A stretch of DNA of 64,000 nucleotides, from positions 64,001 through 128,000 of IMG/VR virus record IMGVR_UViG_3300033066_001283. One strand, given 5' to 3'. Below, in pieces: positions 54,004 through 63,609 of the stretch (position 1 is the stretch's first letter; every line of letters begins with the position of its first letter). The notes beneath the pieces are model-generated. The model saw only the letters and a program-made list of their open reading frames with translations, had not been told where the DNA came from and did not search any database. The position numbers and the translations under genes are program-made. The stretch is from a virus (taxonomy: Duplodnaviria; Caudoviricetes).

Positions 54004-57000
54004 CTATTTAGAGACAATAGCCTTAAATACTTCTCCTAACTTAGCAAAAGCCTCTTTTAGAATTGGTGAAAGGTGTGATGCTGACTCTACCCCACCAATC
54101 AATCTTCCTTCTACTGCTGCCATTCTTTCAGCGTAACCAGCTTGGTATCTTTCTAATCCAGCTGCAACTATTTTTCTACCATCAATCTCTTCACCACTAT
54201 CTAGAAAGAGTTTTGCAGGATCCATTCCTGCAGCTACTGCTTCTAATAGTGTTTGACCCACATGTTCTACCAGATTATTGACCATTCCTTCATCTAATCC
54301 TTGTTCTACCCACATTCTAGCCATCGGCCTTAACTGATCAATGATGGCTGTGCCTTGGTATCTTCTAATAACTGATTCTGTCTCTTCAGTAATAGCAGTT
54401 TCAGTAGAAGTTAATGATCTTCCTGCCTGAACATCCATCCAGAGTCTACTTTTATGCTTATAATTAATTCCATCTTTACTAAACTCAAAAAGCTTTTCTT
54501 CACGGTGTGCAACCAACCGATTATAGTTCTCAGCAGAAGAATCTTTCATGTAAGCATTGAAAGCCTGTTTGGCTGATTCTGAAGTGCTTGCAATATCTGC
54601 TAAAACATCCATCAAGCCCTTATCTTTAGCTCCACCAATTCCTTGAAAGATAAGATTTTCACTTGATTCAAATGAGAAAGGTAATCCTTGATCTTTAATT
54701 GCACCATTAGTACTTAACCATTTACCTAATTCTTTAGTGAAAGAGTAATGTTCTCCCTCATACTCTATTCCAGTTTCCGCTTTAGTGGGCATTTGAAGCG
54801 TTCTTCTATGCTTAGCCTCCCAAGATGAGGATACACCAGAAGAGACGCCTAGAAAGCCCTCTGAGGCGTCAAAAACCCTATTTACAGAAGACTCACCATA
54901 GTGTTTATAGATTGAACTGGCCAACTCTGGCTGAAAATCCTCCATATCTGTTAAAACTAATCTCGCTTTGACGAGTGGGCTATTAGTAAGCTGCTTCATA
55001 GTCTTCATAGTAGCACTCTGATTATTGATTGTTAAGTAGTCACCAATAAATGGTTTCTCACCATGAAGGGTGCCTAATAATCCAATTCCAAACCTAAGTC
55101 CTTCCTTATCTAAATTTCGCATCATTAAGGTTCCAACTAGAACTTTATCTAAATCCTTATCACTATTAAGCTCATTAACTGCCCCAAGTGCCAAACTAAT
55201 GTTCTCATCCCCATAAACTCCATAATTTTGCTGAAGATCTAATAATCGGTAATGCCTAAAACGCATAACATTAGTCTCAGGTGTAATAGCTAATCCACCA
55301 TCAATTTGGGCTACAACATCACTAATTCCTATTGCACCTATTGTTCGTTTTACTTCACCCATAGCCTCTCTATATACATAAGCTCTATCAGCATAGTCAG
55401 CCATACCCATAATGTATGCAATGTATTCCCGATCATTAGGATTCGCCTTTAATGTATTTCTTAGTGTGGCTGGATCAGTCCCCATAGCTGTAGCTGCTTT
55501 AATTAAAATATTATTGTGCTCGAAAATGTAACTAGCAGTAATATTTTCACTTTCACCAAACAATCTATTTGACTCAAGACCGATGCCTTTCTTAGTGAAT
55601 AATGAACCAATGATTTCTGGTAGGTACTGTTCCGGTTGATCTTCTACAACTTCCCCAAACTCATTTAACCTTCTTCTAATTGGTAGGTAGATGCCGTGTT
55701 GTATATTTTTAAATTTTGCATTAGTTGCTTTTCCAGTAGGATCTCTGAAAGTAACTAATTTACCTTCTACCCCGTCAATAGTGTGGAGCTCAAGGAAACT
55801 GAAACGCTCATTTATGTTCTTTCTAGTTTTAGTAAACTGTTTGTAGAATTCAAGTGCTCGTGCAGATGCTTCATGAACTGGGGTTCTAACATCTTTAGTA
55901 TCCCCATAACTTCTTTTGAAAAACATCTCTTCTGGGCGGAAAGCTCCAATCAACTTTCTAGCAAGTTGTTCCCTTGGAAGAATAGCTTCGTTAGCAATAA
56001 CAGCTGCCTGTACCTCTAATGGCATTTGCTCAAAATACTTTCGTTGGCTGGTGCTTTTACCAAATACCTCATCTAATGCATAATCATGAGCAACCATAGC
56101 TTGTAGCTGATGGTACATGGGTGATGAAGCTGTTCCTTTCTGGTTAAGACCAAGATTTTCAATAGCCATCGCCACAAGCCCTTTATCACGAAGTGGATCA
56201 AATAAAGCAAATGCCCCAGTTAAAGCATTATCATCCTCCATCAATTGTGCATACTTATCTGGGTTATCTCTTGCTAACCTGGCTAGAAAATCTTTGAAAG
56301 CAATTAAGTTGGTAACATTTACCTGGTTAGTTCCGAGGCCTACTACTGTATCTCTAGCTCCAATCTCCCACATCTTTGTGAAAGCCTTAACCTGGTTCTC
56401 TTTAGTACTGGTAAAATAATATTCCAGATCTTTTGAAATACCTTTAAACACTGGGTGGTTAGGTCCAACCTCTTTTATTCCCCGAAGAATCTTGTGTGGA
56501 TCTTGCTTATCATAGTGTATAACGTAGGTTAAGTTTGGTGAGTGTGCTGGGAACTTGGTAACAAATCCTCCAAGGCTAATATTACCATTACCCACCCTCT
56601 GCTTCATCTCTTCAGTTTTTCGCTGAAGCCATGCGTTAAAATTAGCTTCAAATGTTGTAACAGATACTTGGTCACCATCAAAGTCACGGTAGAGTAGGTA
56701 AGAAGCTTTTGGGTTCATCATAACAACCTCTTGCCCTGTATTCTCATTCACCTGAATCCTAATATGTATCTCAGTTCCAGGTGGAATAGGAAGCTTCTCA
56801 GTATCGGCCCAGCTTCTTCCCCTCAGTTTTGGGTCCATAGGGAGCGTAGGATCCCAAAATAGCTTCATCATTCTAGTGTGAACATTATCAGCACCAAACG
56901 CTTTACTTAAAAAGTGTTTAACTGCAGCAGGACCTTCTATTCTACTTTGATCATTTCCTAGCTTTGTTAAATTCCTTCCAGCTATATTCCTTAACTGGGC

Positions 57001-57213
57001 TAGAATCGCAGTGTTATCATCAGCAGAATTAATTCCCGCCTTCAACTGTCTCCAAGCGAAGTCAAAGCCAGCTGCAAAAATCTCCCGTTGATTCTGAACA
57101 AAGGGTATTGCTTCAAATTCGCCCCTTATCTCATCAGCAGAAAATAATCTCCCTGAAGAATCTTTAAACCATGTATTAGGTTTAAATGTATACCTTCTAG
57201 CAATCCAGCTCAT
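54004..57213 (-). CDS. Putative phage double-psi beta-barrel RNA polymerase (beta'-like catalytic motif)
   Basis: VVMMNPKASYLLYRDFDGDQVSV (DFDGD at aa 177-181, nt 56671-56685) parallels the beta' pattern xxLNPxxxxxYNADFDGDxMxV. Possible beta-like LHGEK at aa 716-720. Confidence 0.65.
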   Translation of the reverse strand: MSWIARRYTFKPNTWFKDSSGRLFSADEIRGEFEAIPFVQNQREIFAAGFDFAWRQLKAGINSADDNTAILAQLRNIAGRNLTKLGNDQSRIEGPAAVKHFLSKAFGADNVHTRMMKLFWDPTLPMDPKLRGRSWADTEKLPIPPGTEIHIRIQVNENTGQEVVMMNPKASYLLYRDFDGDQVSVTTFEANFNAWLQRKTEEMKQRVGNGNISLGGFVTKFPAHSPNLTYVIHYDKQDPHKILRGIKEVGPNHPVFKGISKDLEYYFTSTKENQVKAFTKMWEIGARDTVVGLGTNQVNVTNLIAFKDFLARLARDNPDKYAQLMEDDNALTGAFALFDPLRDKGLVAMAIENLGLNQKGTASSPMYHQLQAMVAHDYALDEVFGKSTSQRKYFEQMPLEVQAAVIANEAILPREQLARKLIGAFRPEEMFFKRSYGDTKDVRTPVHEASARALEFYKQFTKTRKNINERFSFLELHTIDGVEGKLVTFRDPTGKATNAKFKNIQHGIYLPIRRRLNEFGEVVEDQPEQYLPEIIGSLFTKKGIGLESNRLFGESENITASYIFEHNNILIKAATAMGTDPATLRNTLKANPNDREYIAYIMGMADYADRAYVYREAMGEVKRTIGAIGISDVVAQIDGGLAITPETNVMRFRHYRLLDLQQNYGVYGDENISLALGAVNELNSDKDLDKVLVGTLMMRNLDKEGLRFGIGLLGTLHGEKPFIGDYLTINNQSATMKTMKQLTNSPLVKARLVLTDMEDFQPELASSIYKHYGESSVNRVFDASEGFLGVSSGVSSSWEAKHRRTLQMPTKAETGIEYEGEHYSFTKELGKWLSTNGAIKDQGLPFSFESSENLIFQGIGGAKDKGLMDVLADIASTSESAKQAFNAYMKDSSAENYNRLVAHREEKLFEFSKDGINYKHKSRLWMDVQAGRSLTSTETAITEETESVIRRYQGTAIIDQLRPMARMWVEQGLDEGMVNNLVEHVGQTLLEAVAAGMDPAKLFLDSGEEIDGRKIVAAGLERYQAGYAERMAAVEGRLIGGVESASHLSPILKEAFAKLGEVFKAIVSK

Positions 57214-57249: not shown

Positions 57250-57330
57250 AAATTAGAACACCCTTCCACCCCAATTAATTTCTCTGTTTCAGAAATAGGT
57301 ACTGTCAAAATAATAATTTCCTAAAACTCA

Positions 57331-58448
57331 GAATTAGACCCACCCCCCATTGAATTAATCCTTCTTAATACTCCAACCATAGTAAGTTGGAAACTTACCC
57401 TTCTTCAATTGATACAAGCCATTTCTTGGAATATTAAATTGTTTAGCTAACTGAGAGATATTATTAGTTACATGCTCATTACCGTTGGGATCAATGAATG
57501 TGGGGTGTATTGTCTCTCCATTCTTTATTCTTACAGAGTTTTCAGCATTTATTTTCGCTATTCTTTCACTCTTTTCAGATGAGTAAATCTTTTCTTTTGC
57601 TGCTTTACGAGGTTTAGGTTGCCATATCTTTTCTCTTTCACCTGGAGGTAAAGAATATCCCTTGTAGGTTTTGCGCGTCCCATTAATAACTCTTCTTAGT
57701 CTTTTTTGCTCTAAATTATTCTCTTCACAAAATAAACTTAAATTTCTAACTGTAAAAGTGGTATTCTGAAAACAAAGTTGATACTCTTTTGAGATTGGTT
57801 TATTTTCCCTGTATTCTCTGGAAATATTTTCTTTTTTATATTTCTCTCGACTCTTAATAACCTTATCAGAAATAGTATACCGTCTGCCGTAATCTTTACT
57901 TCTCTCTAAAGATTCTAATCTTTTAGCATTTCGATATTCAATCCTTTCAGAGTCACTCATACTAGATAGCTTCTTGCGTTTTTCTTGCCCTTCCTTAACC
58001 TTAGTACTAAATTCAGTTTCAGAAATTCTAATTTTATAATTAGGTAGTAGTCCTGGCTTTAGTAGTATATTATACATTTTGTCTTTAGTACATAGACTTA
58101 AGTAATATTCTTCTTTTTCGTTCAGCTGCTCAATCGAGCACTCCTCAATAATTCCCGGTTTAAAGTATTCTTTATCTTTATTCCATGCGTTCTGAAGATA
58201 TGCATTAGAGTGTACCCCTTTCAATAAATCACATCTGTGATCTGTAAATCGTCTAGGTATATGTTTAGATTGTCCTATATACATTTTATCATTTAATGTG
58301 TTGTATAGACAATAGATGCCAGAAACATTTGGAACTTCCTTCCATTCGTATAATGAGATATTCATATAAAAGAATGTAGATCATCCCCTAAAAATCAAGG
58401 CATGTCTGAGTTGGTAATAGACGGGGGCATAGTCGGAATTAGACCCAC
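57331..58448 (+). repeat. 13-bp direct repeat GAATTAGACCCAC flanking the GIY-YIG gene
   Basis: Exact copies at 57331-57343 and 58436-58448. Confidence 0.75.
57355..58365 (-). CDS. Free-standing GIY-YIG homing endonuclease
   Basis: SGIYCLYNTLNDKMYIGQS...RF..H...H.N..LQNAW..., LNEKE, YNI; two NUMOD1-like C-terminal HTH units. Confidence 0.88.
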   Translation of the reverse strand: MNISLYEWKEVPNVSGIYCLYNTLNDKMYIGQSKHIPRRFTDHRCDLLKGVHSNAYLQNAWNKDKEYFKPGIIEECSIEQLNEKEEYYLSLCTKDKMYNILLKPGLLPNYKIRISETEFSTKVKEGQEKRKKLSSMSDSERIEYRNAKRLESLERSKDYGRRYTISDKVIKSREKYKKENISREYRENKPISKEYQLCFQNTTFTVRNLSLFCEENNLEQKRLRRVINGTRKTYKGYSLPPGEREKIWQPKPRKAAKEKIYSSEKSERIAKINAENSVRIKNGETIHPTFIDPNGNEHVTNNISQLAKQFNIPRNGLYQLKKGKFPTYYGWSIKKD

Positions 58449-58538
58449 GAGGGTCGTTTTTATGGGCAATCATGCCTATAGGGAATCATCCCAGTGATGC
58501 TGTGCTCAACAGCTTTTACCTTTGTAGGAGGTAATATC

Positions 58539-58877
58539 GTGTTTAAAATGACAGTAGCCACTATGGCAGCGATCATTCTGCGTAGTAAGGACATGGCAAG
58601 TCCTTCCATCGCTCTCCGTTCAGGCGAGCTTGTCCTCATTGATGGAGATATCAATGACGAGAACCTTCTCATCGTGGATGCGGTGGACACCTCGTTCTGG
58701 GAACAGTGGTTGCCCAGTAATATCCCGTTCCGACATACCTTTGGAACGTTCGAGTCTCAAATGAAGCGGTACGTGAGCCGCTTCAATCGAACTGGTGTAA
58801 AGAATGTCCTCATGGCATTGTCGTATCATGAGGTGCAGTTGAAGAGGAGGTATCCAGAAGAACTGTTTAAAGACTGA
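58539..58877 (+). CDS. Early-region hypothetical protein
   Basis: Start reassigned to GTG 58539 behind AGGAGGT. Confidence 0.65.
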   Translation: MFKMTVATMAAIILRSKDMASPSIALRSGELVLIDGDINDENLLIVDAVDTSFWEQWLPSNIPFRHTFGTFESQMKRYVSRFNRTGVKNVLMALSYHEVQLKRRYPEELFKD

Positions 58878-58944
58878 GCCGAAAGCCAGGGATTTCTCCC
58901 TGGTTATACATAGGGTATGCTCCTATGTACTGATGAGGCAGCAC
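58878..58944 (+). ncRNA. Hammerhead ribozyme, type II (copy 1)
   Basis: GCC-GAAA-stem III GCCAGGGA/TTTC/TCCCTGGT-T-A^-stem I TACATAGG/GTATGCT/CCTATGTA-CTGATGA-GGC. Loop I TGCT can pair with the 3' AGCA. Predicted cleavage after A58906. Confidence 0.9.
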
Positions 58945-58981
58945 TCTCACAACGACCTTTACCTTTGTAGGAGGTAATATT

Positions 58982-59296
58982 ATGCTATTGACATTCACCA
59001 TTCCATCTACTGGGCACATACGCTCAGTGGATCTGAGGGACGAGCTTGTGCATGAGTACAAGCTTTCAATCCAAGAGATGAGCAGGTACTTTAGCCCTGC
59101 TCTTGACAGACAGCGGAGGGCAGCACACAATAAGGTGGCTGCTTCTCTTGTCCCCATTCTCAAGGAAGAACTTCCTGAGGAGGATGATGCTTCTCTCACT
59201 CAAGAGGCCCGTAGGATAGTGACGGGTTTTTTAGAAGAATCCCTGACTGGCCGGAGTATGGTCAGGGAGCTCCTGGACTCCGGTTTACTGCGTTAG
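58982..59296 (+). CDS. Early-region hypothetical protein
   Basis: 104 aa, SD AGGAGGT. Confidence 0.7.
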   Translation: MLLTFTIPSTGHIRSVDLRDELVHEYKLSIQEMSRYFSPALDRQRRAAHNKVAASLVPILKEELPEEDDASLTQEARRIVTGFLEESLTGRSMVRELLDSGLLR

Positions 59297-59308
59297 TTTG
59301 AGTATTGC

Positions 59309-59357
59309 GGTGAACAGTGCCTAACTGTATGGTGTGTAAATCACCTATCTGTAGGAG
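59309..59357 (+). ncRNA. Unclassified two-hairpin intergenic motif (copy A)
   Basis: GGTGA-ACAG/TGCCTAA/CTGT-AT-GGTG/TGTAAAT/CACC-TATC-TGTAGGAG. Confidence 0.55.
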
Positions 59358-59368
59358 GTAAGTAAATC

Positions 59369-59635
59369 ATGCGTTCAATGAACAAAGGAAGTTGGGTGTA
59401 TTTACCAACTCTTATCACTCTTTCGATGCTCCAGGAGCAGAAGGACAGACACTACACCTTCCACCCAGAGGTCTTCTTCGAGGACCTCAATCCTGGGTGG
59501 ACTGAGCAGGTTCTCGGGTTCATGGCGAAGAACCCAACGTGCTCGATGAGCATCGATGCACGGTATCATCAGGACAGCTACTCTGATGGGGAAACCCTTA
59601 GAGGAGAAGGCATGGTGTATTGTCAGACTAGATAA
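59369..59635 (+). CDS. Early-region hypothetical protein
   Basis: 88 aa, SD AGGAGGT. Confidence 0.7.
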   Translation: MRSMNKGSWVYLPTLITLSMLQEQKDRHYTFHPEVFFEDLNPGWTEQVLGFMAKNPTCSMSIDARYHQDSYSDGETLRGEGMVYCQTR

Positions 59636-59636
59636 T

Positions 59637-59703
59637 GCCGAAAGCCAGGGATTTCTCCCTGGTTATACATAGGGTATGCTCCTATGTACTGATGAGGCAG
59701 CAC
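59637..59703 (+). ncRNA. Hammerhead ribozyme, type II (copy 2)
   Basis: Part of a 77-bp exact repeat of copy 1 (58878-58954 = 59637-59713). Stem II can extend to TGCC/GGCA. Predicted cleavage after A59665. Confidence 0.9.
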
Positions 59704-59737
59704 TCTCACAACGTTTGTTACCGTAGGAGGTAATATA

Positions 59738-59899
59738 GTGAATAGAAGAACAAAACTCATCATCGTTAGTGCTATCATAGTAGCACTATGCCTGCTGGAT
59801 GCAGCAGGTGTCTGCATCACTGACCCTCGCTTTGAGGCGGGGAAGCAGGATAGGGCTCAAGCAGCCCGCATTCTTGAGGAAGCAAGCACAACACATTGA
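59738..59899 (+). CDS. Small membrane protein (53 aa)
   Basis: Not in the track; GTG behind AGGAGGT; MNRRTKLIIVSAIIVALCLLDAAGVCITDPRFEAGKQDRAQAARILEEASTTH*. Confidence 0.65.
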   Translation: MNRRTKLIIVSAIIVALCLLDAAGVCITDPRFEAGKQDRAQAARILEEASTTH

Positions 59900-59907
59900 T
59901 TGCTTGT

Positions 59908-59956
59908 GGTGAACAGTGCCTAACTGCATGGTGTGTAAATCACCTAATTGTAGGAG
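59908..59956 (+). ncRNA. Unclassified two-hairpin intergenic motif (copy B)
   Basis: Near-identical to copy A; CAG/TGCCTAA/CTG, GGTG/CACC, TGTAGGAG. Confidence 0.55.
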
Positions 59957-59963
59957 TAATAAA

Positions 59964-60407
59964 ATGAAAACATTAGTAGTAGCAGTGTGGGCGTGGCTTT
60001 CGGCCAAGTACCAAGGTCTTGTCTATGGCAGGACTGAGAAGTGTGAGTGGTGCGGGGAGCCGTGCGTTCCCAACGCTCACCATATGTGTGTGCACTGCCT
60101 TGAACAGGAGTTTGGCACTCCTGAAGACTGGCAGGCAGAGTGGGAAGAGGACTCGCTTCGACAGAAGATCGAGGACGTTCTGGATCCTGAAGAGTTGGAG
60201 CATTCTAATACTCAGGATCAAGGAGAGGGATGGGGAGTCCACACCTGCTGCAAGTGTGGTGGAAAGACTCATCCTGATGGTCCTGCATCTGTGTGGGATC
60301 CTTTCACCGATGAGACTTGGTGTGAGGATTGCTGGTATAAGGAGAATCCTCCCAGCGAACAGCTCATAAAGAGTCTGCCGAAGTGTGAGGTAGACTTCGA
60401 AGACTAA
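59964..60407 (+). CDS. Acidic protein with two C4 zinc-finger-like units
   Basis: Start reassigned to ATG 59964 behind AGGAG; CEWC...CVHC and CCKC...CEDC. Confidence 0.7.
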   Translation: MKTLVVAVWAWLSAKYQGLVYGRTEKCEWCGEPCVPNAHHMCVHCLEQEFGTPEDWQAEWEEDSLRQKIEDVLDPEELEHSNTQDQGEGWGVHTCCKCGGKTHPDGPASVWDPFTDETWCEDCWYKENPPSEQLIKSLPKCEVDFED

Positions 60408-60416
60408 TGAGTATAT

Positions 60417-60463
60417 GGTGGACGTGCCTAACGTAGCAGAAGGATTATCTGCATTTGTAGGAG
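60417..60463 (+). ncRNA. Unclassified two-hairpin intergenic motif (copy C, divergent)
   Basis: GGTGG-ACG/TGCCTAA/CGT-A-GCAGA/AGGATTA/TCTGC-ATT-TGTAGGAG; both stems differ from A/B yet still pair. Confidence 0.55.
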
Positions 60464-60473
60464 TAGTAAGAAC

Positions 60474-61832
60474 ATGAAACTGTTAAGTTTAGAACAAGTG
60501 TGGAAGATGCGGACGAAGCATCAGTTGGAGTGGTTGAACTCAATCCCTGACCTGAAGACGAAGAAGTGTCAGCGTGTTGTTGTAAGAGGAAACAAGACGA
60601 TTTCAATCGTCGTGACCATGGGATTCCGAGATTCGGAATCAAAGGTCCGTCTATTCAAGATCGAACACAGATTTAAGATTGATGGTACCTACCTTGGCTC
60701 GTACTTTGAAGGAATAGATCCTTCTGCCTTCACGCGTCAGGTTCTGAGGCTGGTGAGATTATCACTCCCAGGGTTGCACTCAAAAGTGCAACATGGGTAT
60801 GTTATGGATAAACTCTGCCACCCATTCGATCTAGCGGATTTTTCCAAGGAAATTGGTATCAGCGCCTGCCCGTGGGGTGTTAAGACCGTTCTGCTGTGGC
60901 AGGATCTTGGATTCTATACTAGGTATAGTGTCAATGATCTCTACCTTCCAGTTAAACATGGATTGTTACGCAATCTAAAACGAGAAGATCATGGAGGATT
61001 AGAGTACATGATGCGAAAGGGAGGCAAGTATATTCGCTCCCTAGGAAAACAAGGAAGTATTATGGTATGGAGAGCTGTAACAGCAATGGATGCTGCTAGA
61101 ATCTCTCCCGGCCTCCCCTTCCGAGTGGCCACAATGTGGTTAACTGTAGTAAGCCATAGACGGAACGAAGAATCTCTCCCAATATGGGCAAGGTTTATCT
61201 TCCTTCACTGGGAGCAGAACTACAGAGCCATTCTTCGTAGAACGAAGAATGCAGCTGGAGTGCATCGCTCACGAGATATAGATGCAGTGCTCAATGATCT
61301 GTATGATTACTTGGGTGCACATTACGAAGAAGCTCTACCAGATGCTGCATTCGAGGTCTTGTTCCAAAGATCAGAAGCGTGGCATCGCGTGTTAAGAGAG
61401 AATCGGCGTGCTCTTAATGATATAGACTATGGTCCAAATCTTGAGAAGGACACTGCTCTTCCTTGGAATGGATTGGAAGGAACATTCTCTATTGGCGAAT
61501 TCGAGTTTACTCGAATTACAACGTATGGAGATCTCTTGGATGAGGGCGACATTATGCGGCATTGTGTAGCTACATATGTCAGGTATTGTCTAACAGGCAA
61601 TACATCCATTTGGAGTATGAGACTCAAGGTACTAAAGGGCAAGAAATGTATGCGTGTTGCCACACTTGAAGTAGCGCATGCAGGAGTGTCTGAGTTGCGA
61701 CAGGCTCGAACTGCCTGTAATGGCTCACTAAACGACGAACAAAGAGCCGCAACCAGAGCCTTTGTATCCTGGCTTAACAATCAACCACTTAGTGTGGGTG
61801 AGAGACTTAGAGCATTGAATGAGGTAAACTAA
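60474..61832 (+). CDS. PcfJ-like domain protein
   Basis: C-terminal ITTYGDLLDEGDIMRHCVATY...GNTSIWSMR...VATLEV...QAR..CN matches the PcfJ-like pattern. Confidence 0.75.
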   Translation: MKLLSLEQVWKMRTKHQLEWLNSIPDLKTKKCQRVVVRGNKTISIVVTMGFRDSESKVRLFKIEHRFKIDGTYLGSYFEGIDPSAFTRQVLRLVRLSLPGLHSKVQHGYVMDKLCHPFDLADFSKEIGISACPWGVKTVLLWQDLGFYTRYSVNDLYLPVKHGLLRNLKREDHGGLEYMMRKGGKYIRSLGKQGSIMVWRAVTAMDAARISPGLPFRVATMWLTVVSHRRNEESLPIWARFIFLHWEQNYRAILRRTKNAAGVHRSRDIDAVLNDLYDYLGAHYEEALPDAAFEVLFQRSEAWHRVLRENRRALNDIDYGPNLEKDTALPWNGLEGTFSIGEFEFTRITTYGDLLDEGDIMRHCVATYVRYCLTGNTSIWSMRLKVLKGKKCMRVATLEVAHAGVSELRQARTACNGSLNDEQRAATRAFVSWLNNQPLSVGERLRALNEVN

Positions 61833-62161
61833 TGAACAAGAATAAGAAGCTCCAGATGGAGCGGATCATCGCTGAGGTACGAGCAAACAAAGTGCTCGTT
61901 ATTGATGTCAAGGACTTTGAAGCCTATCGAGGTGTTGTCCGCCTTGGTACCCTCAAGGCGAGGGAAGCAAAGAGGGAGTGGAAAGCTCCCAAGTTGATTG
62001 TCAAAGCTCAGACAGCTGATCCTGAAGTTCTCAGGAAGTTGGCTGACAGAGGAGCTAGCAGAATTATCTGCTCAGTTCCCAAGAACAAGAAACGAGAGAT
62101 CATCCAGTCTCTCGTCAAGAACCCTGCACGATGTTGGGTGCAGGTAATGGAGGTAAAATAA
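61832..62161 (+). CDS. Basic hypothetical protein
   Basis: 109 aa, TAATG coupling, SD GAGGT. Confidence 0.65.
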   Translation: MNKNKKLQMERIIAEVRANKVLVIDVKDFEAYRGVVRLGTLKAREAKREWKAPKLIVKAQTADPEVLRKLADRGASRIICSVPKNKKREIIQSLVKNPARCWVQVMEVK

Positions 62162-62849: not shown

Positions 62850-63089
62850 ATGAAACAGCCTATCGTAATTACAGCAGAGCGCAAAGCCGAACTGAAGAGG
62901 ATTGTCAAGCGGGCAATCGAGACCGGAGCTACGAGCTTCACCGTGAACAGCCCAGCAGAATGGACGTTCTGCGTGCGTGCTATCCAACACGAGCGGTCTA
63001 AGGGGCAGTACATCCCCAATAAGCAGATCCTTACCCGGACACAGCTCCGGGATGACGCGCTCGAAGACTTCGATTACAATCCAAGCTAG
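62850..63089 (+). CDS. Hypothetical protein
   Basis: 79 aa, SD AGGAG. Confidence 0.65.
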   Translation: MKQPIVITAERKAELKRIVKRAIETGATSFTVNSPAEWTFCVRAIQHERSKGQYIPNKQILTRTQLRDDALEDFDYNPS

Positions 63090-63098
63090 TGCGTGTTC

Positions 63099-63131
63099 GG
63101 GGCCAACCTAACGGTTGGCCCCCCTTTTCTT
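63099..63131 (+). terminator. Intrinsic terminator
   Basis: 10-bp stem GGGGCCAACC-TAAC-GGTTGGCCCC followed by CCTTTTCTT. Confidence 0.8.
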
Positions 63132-63261
63132 GTGGCCTAACAAACCTCCGGTAGACTGCCTGTTTGGTAGTTTTGGGGCTAATTACGCTCTTGTGTGGTG
63201 TTGCCACATTGGGCACGGCCTGAGGTTTGGGGTGTTAGTGCCCCCATTGTAGGAAGGTAAT

Positions 63262-63609
63262 ATGCTGAAAATTATCAAGAATCGACGTGTGCGTACAGCA
63301 CCAGTGACCAAGCCCGTAAAGCTTACCACTACAGACGAGTTTGATGCTCTAATGAGCAGACTTGAGGAGCTTTCTAAGCAACTTGTTATGCCTGCTTCCC
63401 CGAAGAACCTCACTCCTGAAGATATCAGGGAAGGGACTAAGAAGATGATGATCGGAACTCTGTTCATTACAGAGATGGAAGGCAATACGCAGGAAGAGCA
63501 GATTGCCATGTTCATCAGAATTCGCTCTCAGCTAGTTCCGTATGAGCTTGACTGGTTCAGGCTCGGAGCTGAGGCGATCATGGAATACAGACGGCTATGT
63601 TCGGCCTAG
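63262..63609 (+). CDS. Hypothetical protein
   Basis: 115 aa, SD AGGAAGGT. Confidence 0.65.
   Translation: MLKIIKNRRVRTAPVTKPVKLTTTDEFDALMSRLEELSKQLVMPASPKNLTPEDIREGTKKMMIGTLFITEMEGNTQEEQIAMFIRIRSQLVPYELDWFRLGAEAIMEYRRLCSA

Follow-up and report, generated by a model that had tools for sequence, protein, structure and literature searches.

Hammerhead ribozymes occur in clusters in certain prophages, where they flank single genes or short variable blocks, as in Clostridium scindens, Azorhizobium caulinodans and Agrobacterium tumefaciens (PMC3088659). Cleavage of these clustered phage hammerheads was demonstrated in E. coli as well as on polycistronic fragments while these were being transcribed in vitro, and Perreault et al. 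2011 proposed that the ribozymes process long phage transcripts into shorter mRNAs (PMC3088659). The review of Weinberg et al. 2019 still describes their purpose as unresolved (PMC6765202). Here we describe a 64,000-nucleotide stretch of phage DNA (hereafter the window), corresponding to bases 64001-128000 of the 150,263-bp IMG/VR virus record IMGVR_UViG_3300033066_001283 (an estimated ~80% complete genome), in which a type II hammerhead is encoded twice among small, co-directional genes. As in the clustered phage hammerheads, the two copies lie close together (759 nt apart), on the coding strand and in gaps between plus-strand open reading frames (ORFs). Judging from the sequence and its relatives, both are probably functional ribozymes in the mRNA of these small phage genes.

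A complete type II hammerhead is encoded twice

A repeat search of the window recovered an exact 77-nt repeat on the plus strand at 58878-58954 (copy 1) and 59637-59713 (copy 2), the two being 93% identical over 94 nt, and a BLAST search against the whole virus record returned exactly these two copies. Copy 1 begins 0 nt past the TGA of a 112-aa ORF (stop ending at 58877), while copy 2 begins 1 nt past the TAA of an 88-aa ORF (stop ending at 59635). An earlier note on this DNA, prepared from the letters and an ORF list, had described an exact 77-bp repeat lying 0-1 nt after a stop codon and had interpreted it as a type II hammerhead with a pseudoknot between loop I and the 3' tail. The repeat search and the ORF list bear out the former, and the Rfam alignment and the predicted fold the motif, its topology and the pseudoknot.

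In each copy the elements follow one another in the order GCC-GAAA-hairpin III-UUA-hairpin I-CUGAUGA-GGC, with stems I and III closed by loops and stem II open, which is the type II permutation. Stem II consists of 3 bp formed by GCC (11.3-11.1) and GGC (10.1-10.3), to which U59636 can add a fourth pair in copy 2. The core comprises G12 A13 A14 and C3 U4 G5 A6 U7 G8 A9, and all 13 constrained positions are intact in both copies; in copy 1 GAA+A occupies 58881-58884, CUGAUGA 58930-58936, U16.1 58905 and A17 58906. The 9-bp stem III (AGCCAGGGA/UCCCUGGUU with the loop UUUC; in hammerhead numbering A15.1-GCCAGGGA, the loop, then UCCCUGGU-U16.1) contains the only non-Watson-Crick pair of the element, a G15.2·U16.2 wobble. 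Stem I has 8 bp (UACAUAGG/CCUAUGUA; in hammerhead numbering U1.1-ACAUAGG, loop GUAUGCUC, CCUAUGU-A2.1), and the UGCU of its loop (58916-58919) is complementary over 4 bp to the 3' tail AGCA (58940-58943), so that the ribozyme together with the pseudoknot tail spans 58878-58943 in copy 1. The cleavage site is UUA, H17 being the A at 58906 or 59665, which places the predicted cuts at 58906/58907 and 59665/59666 and the new 5' ends 75 nt (copy 1) and 72 nt (copy 2) ahead of the next start codon. These coordinates, taken from the sequence, coincide with the 5' ends (58907 and 59666) and the distances to the starts that had been proposed earlier.

The published rules for accepting a hammerhead comprise an invariant core, an H17 other than G, standard core-adjacent pairs and stems without multiple mispairs (PMC3088659). 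The element agrees with every one of these rules of Perreault et al. 2011 in its core, its core-adjacent pairs and its stem mispairs: the pairs 10.1-11.1, 1.1-2.1 and 15.1-16.1 are G-C, U-A and A-U respectively, all of them standard. Further, UUA conforms to the NUH rule for hammerhead cleavage sites (PMC4191386). The minimum-free-energy fold of the isolated 69-nt RNA is exactly the hammerhead three-way junction (-27.6 kcal/mol), and the fold of the 77-nt repeat has a z of -3.9 relative to shuffles.

At the Rfam gathering thresholds no match was returned in the window, and only two tRNAs in the rest of the genome. With E-value reporting, the Hammerhead_II model (RF02276) aligns to both copies over its full length (model 1-66) and with no non-canonical pair, scoring 27.7 bits for copy 1 and 26.0 bits for copy 2. 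These alignments are the only credible Rfam matches in 58800-59800 (E 0.003 for copy 1 in this 1 kb), and when the whole genome is searched with RF02276 the two copies are its sole matches (E 1.1e-4 and 2.9e-4). A comparison with the Rfam hammerhead models had been suggested in the earlier note as a check: it gave a full-length alignment for both copies, at scores under the threshold. The low score is attributable to the G·U wobble and UUA site, the AU-richer stems and the AGCA tail, and the core is not responsible for it.

Weak RF02276 matches (E<=10) are also seen in 11 of 14 control genomes. We also applied a structural descriptor that requires three Watson-Crick pairs in stem II, GAAA, stem III as a hairpin with 5 bp or more and a U at its end, an H, stem I as a hairpin that likewise has 5 bp or more, and CUGANGA. 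This descriptor matched the genome twice, at the two copies and nowhere else, and found no match on either strand of 300 genomes simulated with a first-order Markov model, which excludes chance; nor did it match any of 100 further simulated genomes after the stems had been relaxed to 4 bp. The string pattern CGAAA-N30-60-CTGATGA alone is expected 0.19 times per window. Taken together, these results confirm that a complete type II hammerhead is encoded twice in this genome.

Relatives in viral contigs are intercistronic

The pattern GCCGAAA-N35-65-CTGATGAGGCAGC, which leaves everything but stem II, the two core strings and AGC free, matched 48 viral contigs; all but two of the matches parse as type II hammerheads, yielding 33 distinct sequences. 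A second pattern, aimed at GAAAG-type members, contributed 19 more, for a total of 52 relatives. They were compared by parsing each structure directly, because stem III was too far out of register in the MAFFT alignment to build a covariance model on it. Across both sets (33 GCC/GGC-AGC and 19 GAAAG-type sequences) the stem I and stem III sequences are mutually unrelated, with the pairing kept. Loop I is complementary to the tail of the same element over 3.79 bp on average, as against 2.47 +/- 0.21 bp (maximum 3.12) in 2000 permutations of the tails among the 52 relatives. As the own-tail complementarity exceeds that of every permutation, the pseudoknot covaries among the relatives, and the UGCU/AGCA pairing of the window element falls in the same register as theirs. 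The cleavage site is GUC in 31 of the 33 sequences of the first set, and C16.2 is paired with G15.2 in all 19 GAAAG-type members. At 11 loci that we sampled, 9 of the query hammerheads score 37.7-61.6 bits, above the Rfam cut-off, with other hammerheads at these loci reaching 68.9 bits, and arrays of 2-7 hammerheads per locus are common (for example, seven in L005 and three each in L007 and L040). Further examples of the wobble/UUA variant were found neither in the viral contigs nor by two metagenome pattern scans, the first of which came back empty while the second returned 17 stretches; the 9 of these that were run through the parse have no hammerhead stems and look like chance matches.

We compared 37 distinct genomic contexts, comprising those of the related hammerheads and of the window's two copies: in 32 of them an ORF on the same strand ends at most 20 nt upstream (within 5 nt in 24) and another starts at most 45 nt downstream. 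In a mirror-image test on the opposite strand the same stop/start layout was present in only 4 of the 37. Therefore, these ribozymes are intercistronic elements of co-directional phage operons.

Proposed processing of the polycistronic mRNA

The mechanism put forward in the earlier note, namely that the ribozymes cut a polycistronic phage mRNA, is supported by the presence of genes on the plus strand only, by the strong Shine-Dalgarno sequence that they share and by the stop/ribozyme/start layout of the relatives. At this locus both the ORF list and the gene calls on a JGI contig identical to the window place genes on the plus strand alone; the antisense ORFs at 58867-59199 and 59623-59820 (minus strand) were taken to be spurious products of the repeat and set aside, no gene being called there on the identical contig. 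No terminator-like sites were detected between the genes, and no sigma-70-like site lies within or adjoins either hammerhead. Under the sigma-70 rules that we used, which do not describe promoters of phage RNA polymerases, promoter-like sites are no commoner than in shuffles. Hence, sigma-70 promoters and intrinsic terminators between the cistrons, neither enriched over shuffles nor present in the gaps, were dropped as candidate elements, and the lack of terminators and of a sigma-70 excess between the genes is compatible with one long transcript.

In the proposed sequence of events, the 66-nt element would fold as the plus strand is transcribed, with stems I and III forming local hairpins, the 3-4-bp stem II closing the junction and UGCU pairing with AGCA. 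The RNA would then cut itself after A58906 and A59665. Because only the 3-4-bp stem II links the cut products, these would be expected to separate at once, rendering cleavage effectively irreversible. The upstream message would end 29-30 nt past its stop codon, which leaves room enough for normal termination, with the 9-bp stem III hairpin and a 2',3'-cyclic phosphate; the downstream message would carry a 5'-OH, with the 8-bp hairpin of stem I starting at its first nucleotide, followed by a leader of ~60 nt and the shared Shine-Dalgarno sequence. Since the stop codon directly adjoins stem II, a ribosome terminating there would sit over this stem and over the 5' strand of stem III, and the RNA would presumably have to fold and cut itself before ribosomes pass or between their passages. 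Ends formed by a 5'-OH hairpin and a cyclic-phosphate hairpin should resist the usual end-dependent pathways of bacterial mRNA decay, and we infer a stabilising effect of the two hairpins on the respective messages. Neighbouring cistrons might in this way gain separate lifetimes and a standard 5' end that is independent of the upstream RNA, as with an engineered ribozyme insulator.

Several observations weigh against functional ribozymes at this locus. The scores of 27.7 and 26.0 bits fall below the RF02276 gathering threshold of 37. The G15.2·U16.2 wobble with a UUA site occurs in none of the 52 relatives examined, and as both features are atypical among them, the activity of the element may be lower than that of typical members. 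Copy 1, copy 2 and their counterpart in a second strain are identical in sequence, leaving no covariation within the lineage. In the predicted fold of a long transcript the CUGAUGAG core of copy 2 can pair with CUCAUCA at 59766-59772. Lastly, the unpaired probability of the Shine-Dalgarno sequence computed by folding is unchanged by cleavage (copy 1, 0.26; copy 2, 0.62), so that folding reveals no gain in translation. The possibility that cleavage unmasks the ribosome-binding site was accordingly rejected, the accessibility before and after the cut being the same, and for this reason any benefit is more likely to lie in stability or insulation. With regard to the alternative helix, CUCAUCA is situated within a 53-aa ORF downstream of copy 2, and no such helix with CUGAUGAG is available to copy 1.

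Natural variants of the locus and alternative explanations

An exact-protein look-up recovered three further contigs covering the locus (L126, L127 and L128). L126 comes from JGI sample 3300020577 and shows no difference from the window. L128, from the Logan assembly of SRR8942298, equals the window minus exactly 759 bp and has a single hammerhead at the junction. By blastn its positions 1-604 correspond to 58374-58980 and 505-2375 to 59637-61507 at 100%, its hammerhead thus combining the upstream flank of copy 1 (58374-58877) with the downstream flank of copy 2 (59714-61507). The unit missing from L128 (58955..59713 on the plus strand, in any register within the repeat) comprises a leader, a 104-aa gene (58982..59296), a two-hairpin intergenic motif, the 88-aa gene (59369..59635) and one hammerhead. 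The 104-aa and 88-aa proteins are recorded from JGI only and not from Logan assemblies, including that of the run that yielded L128, which argues that the shorter form is real; there is some doubt about the deletion, as L128 is a short contig assembled from k-mers, a procedure that could in principle mis-traverse a repeat of 77 nt. L127 stems from JGI sample 3300020577 as well and represents another, diverged strain, whose neighbouring structural gene is 66-97% identical. It lacks the 112-aa gene, hammerhead copy 1, the 104-aa gene and the two-hairpin motif, the junction lying in the shared Shine-Dalgarno sequence TGTAGGAGGTAA, and retains hammerhead copy 2 within a 625-nt segment that is 99% identical. 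Thus, copy 2 is unchanged in both variant contigs.

Judging from these sequences, the locus is a mosaic joined at its repeated intergenic elements, and recombination between the 77-bp direct repeats is enough to account for the 759-bp polymorphism. In the explanation that we favour, the identical copies would also provide, as DNA, the flanking homology for the exchange of a two-gene cassette.

In the likeliest of the alternatives, which we nevertheless regard as unlikely, the element would be a true hammerhead by descent that is weakened or inactive here and persists mainly as a repeated DNA junction, which together with the leader and Shine-Dalgarno sequence serves cassette recombination. There is a precedent in the promoter/terminator stem-loops (PeSLs) of T4-type phages (PMC2839356, PMC4122927). 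The loss of exactly the 759 bp between the copies in L128, the absence from L127 of everything from the 112-aa gene to the first two-hairpin motif with a junction in the shared TGTAGGAGGTAA, and the lack of records of the 104-aa and 88-aa proteins in Logan assemblies, including that of L128's own run, are all in line with such a junction, just as the core-adjacent G·U wobble and UUA site, unique with respect to the 52 relatives, and the sub-threshold Rfam score are in line with a weakened ribozyme. Nevertheless, 13 of 13 constrained core positions are intact in both copies and the repeat starts exactly at the first base of stem II, features that are predicted by selection on the RNA but not by recombination homology alone. 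Moreover, UUA obeys the NUH rule (PMC4191386), the possible mis-traversal of the repeat in a k-mer assembly applies to the deletion here as well, and the roles of ribozyme and junction are not exclusive of each other.

Very improbable, in our estimate, is a second alternative, in which the two hammerheads excise a 759-nt RNA (58907-59665), after which either the ribozyme itself or a ligase of the RtcB type joins its 5'-OH and cyclic-phosphate ends to give a circular two-gene mRNA. Ligation of the identical flanking ribozymes would restore one complete hammerhead, and the very same 759-bp unit is present or absent in the DNA; however, ordinary recombination between the 77-bp repeats accounts for that polymorphism. 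The possibility of such circles was raised for the clustered phage hammerheads, but Perreault et al. sought spliced or circular products of these and found none (PMC3088659). Further, type II products share only the 3-4-bp stem II and nothing keeps their ends together for re-ligation, a weak 3-bp contact that makes a route through an RNA circle unlikely. Finally, a fortuitous resemblance, in which two hairpins that serve as a terminator, as an attenuator or for protein binding contain GAAA and CUGAUGA by accident, could appeal to the sub-threshold score and to the weak matches in 11 of 14 control genomes, but it is exceedingly improbable given the full descriptor's absence from all 300 simulated genomes, the full-length model alignment at an E of 1e-4 per genome, the pseudoknot in its expected register, a gene context identical to that of bona fide members and the lack of a U-run after either hairpin. 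Functional type II hammerheads, the identical copies of which double as recombination homology, remain the reading that we favour.

The gene block around the ribozymes

Most of the window is occupied by the minus-strand structural module of a large myovirus with 35-37% G+C, which encodes terminase, portal, major head and tail-sheath proteins; the portal is ~28% identical to the portals of the Bacillus phage 0305phi8-36 group. No megablast match to 57300-62000 was returned from cultured phages, and no relatives of the 112-aa, 104-aa and 452-aa proteins of the block were found in viral contigs. The host of the elements is an uncultured ~150-kb myovirus without a close cultured relative. The coding strand switches at 58.4 kb, and exactly at this point begins a block of ~18.5 kb, extending to genome position ~141 kb, in which the G+C content rises to 44-49%; this block may have been acquired from a phage of higher G+C content, and the related hammerheads are GC-rich, too. 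Its plus-strand genes are small ORFs without family matches, with the exception of a PcfJ-like 452-aa protein, a GDSL-family lipase/acylhydrolase and two tRNAs, namely tRNA-Arg(TCT) (L053 7140-7215) and tRNA-Leu(TAA) (L053 8342-8427). From its gene content and position, early expression of the block is plausible.

After the leader, the first six genes encode 112, 104, 88, 53, 147 and 452 aa, in this order; a hammerhead follows the 112-aa and the 88-aa gene, and a two-hairpin motif follows the 104-aa, the 53-aa and the 147-aa gene. The leader of the first gene (58456..58538, plus strand) ends in the shared Shine-Dalgarno sequence TTTGTAGGAGGTAATA; its first 79 nt (58456-58534) are 100% identical in L127, the flanking genes of which are only 66-97% identical, and 31 nt of the leader are found again downstream of hammerhead 1 (repeat family D2). 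The 112-aa ORF (58539..58877, plus strand), whose function is unassigned and whose stop abuts hammerhead 1, and the 104-aa ORF, the first gene between the hammerheads, are both gene calls on the identical JGI contig, and neither has a family match in Pfam or PHROG. The 104-aa protein was found only in JGI sample 3300020577 and in the window's own record. The 88-aa ORF, the second gene between the hammerheads, has its stop 1 nt before hammerhead 2. The 53-aa ORF (59738..59899, plus strand), which encodes a hydrophobic helix, lies directly downstream of a hammerhead in all three variants of the locus. Further downstream of the ribozyme-punctuated genes, the PcfJ-like protein (60474-61832) has a 92%-identical variant on a short Logan contig, P0001.

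The gaps without a hammerhead are filled by the two-hairpin motif (family D3; copy a at 59305..59357 on the plus strand, further copies at 59904-59956 and 60417-60463). It opens with GGUG(A/G), after which come a short hairpin, whose loop UGCCUAA is invariant, and a second hairpin, the stem of which varies between copies (GGUG/CACC versus GCAGA/UCUGC), followed by the shared Shine-Dalgarno sequence. In Rfam, copy a had no match at E<=10 and the other copies none in a scan at the gathering threshold only, while RNAalifold on the three copies revealed no compensatory pair and was uninformative. The same Shine-Dalgarno sequence, TGTAGGAG(G)TAA, closes every gap of the first six genes, and in the gaps up to 63264 each gene of the plus-strand block has nearly the same one, TTGTAGGAG(G)TAA, ahead of it. 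The first transcription unit probably ends in the long structured gap at 63087-63264, which is 94% conserved in L127 and contains a terminator-like hairpin, GGGGCCAACC...GGTTGGCCCC followed by CCTTTTCTT, in addition to GC-rich hairpins.

On the other side, the start of the plus-strand block is adjoined by a free-standing GIY-YIG homing-endonuclease gene (57355-58365, minus strand), in place of which L127 has a 478-nt AT-rich spacer. A 1069-aa protein (54004-57213, minus strand) had no PHROG match, and an 858-aa protein (L053 769-3345, plus strand) had no Pfam match and no tblastn match in cultured phages. If these two were RNA polymerases, the promoters of the block could not be judged by sigma-70 rules.

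Comparison with known systems

The motif call is correct and the processing role proposed for it probably so, and both are already known from the work of Perreault et al. 2011. The locus offers a few minor novelties: a sub-threshold G·U/UUA variant, two perfectly identical copies, and a natural variant without the bracketed two-gene block. It adds a clean sub-threshold example to a class whose role in phages remains unproven in vivo, and it shows that the Rfam cut-off misses AU-richer members. The tight spacing of stop, ribozyme and Shine-Dalgarno sequence, along with the common Shine-Dalgarno sequence, makes the effect of cleavage on the stability and translation of the neighbouring genes directly measurable; variants with one or two hammerheads, and with or without the bracketed genes, link ribozyme repeats to the gain and loss of cassettes. 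Neither feature of the locus alters the current picture of what such elements are.

The element shares with the type II hammerheads of RF02276 (PMC3088659) the permuted topology, the invariant core and a stem II that is short and open. As in those, its loop I forms a pseudoknot of 4 bp with the nucleotides just past stem II, and it is intergenic in phage DNA. It differs from them in its AU-richer stems, in having G15.2·U16.2 and UUA where C-G and GUC are usual, and in a tail AGCA in lieu of the consensus AGCCA; at 27.7 bits against a cut-off of 37, it is missed by standard annotation. With the clustered prophage hammerheads it shares the bracketing of a short block of varying small genes by several ribozymes on the same strand, and the proposed processing of the transcript. 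In contrast to those, the copies here are 100% identical, they reside in an uncultured ~150-kb myovirus, and the block between them is present or absent in natural populations.

The PeSL cassettes of T4-type phages (PMC2839356, PMC4122927) seem to resemble the locus in that repeated intergenic elements border indels of small, functionally unassigned genes between close relatives. The junctions may be PeSL-like: that of L128 (a short k-mer contig) lies within the hammerhead repeat and that of L127 within the shared Shine-Dalgarno sequence. However, PeSLs operate at the level of DNA and transcription, whereas here the repeated element is a ribozyme with a shared leader, and no sigma-70-like promoter was detected in the repeat. 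A bolder interpretation, which we consider rather doubtful, is that this phage swaps small genes in and out of a single transcription unit at portable junctions, formed by the hammerhead together with the two-hairpin motif and the leader with its shared Shine-Dalgarno sequence. If this were true, the ribozyme would provide an inserted cassette with an insulated message while sequence identity supplied the homology for its insertion and loss, and the system would be an RNA-level counterpart of the PeSLs of T4-type phages. The 759-nt unit between the cuts might then additionally be an excised, possibly circular RNA, as it is the same unit that comes and goes in the DNA.

In RiboJ-type ribozyme insulators, attributed to Lou et al. 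2012, a self-cleaving ribozyme placed before the ribosome-binding site reportedly removes variable upstream RNA and leaves a defined hairpin at the 5' end. The elements described here differ from RiboJ in being natural, of type II rather than type III, and positioned between cistrons instead of after a promoter; by analogy with it, they may exert an insulating effect on the genes that follow them.

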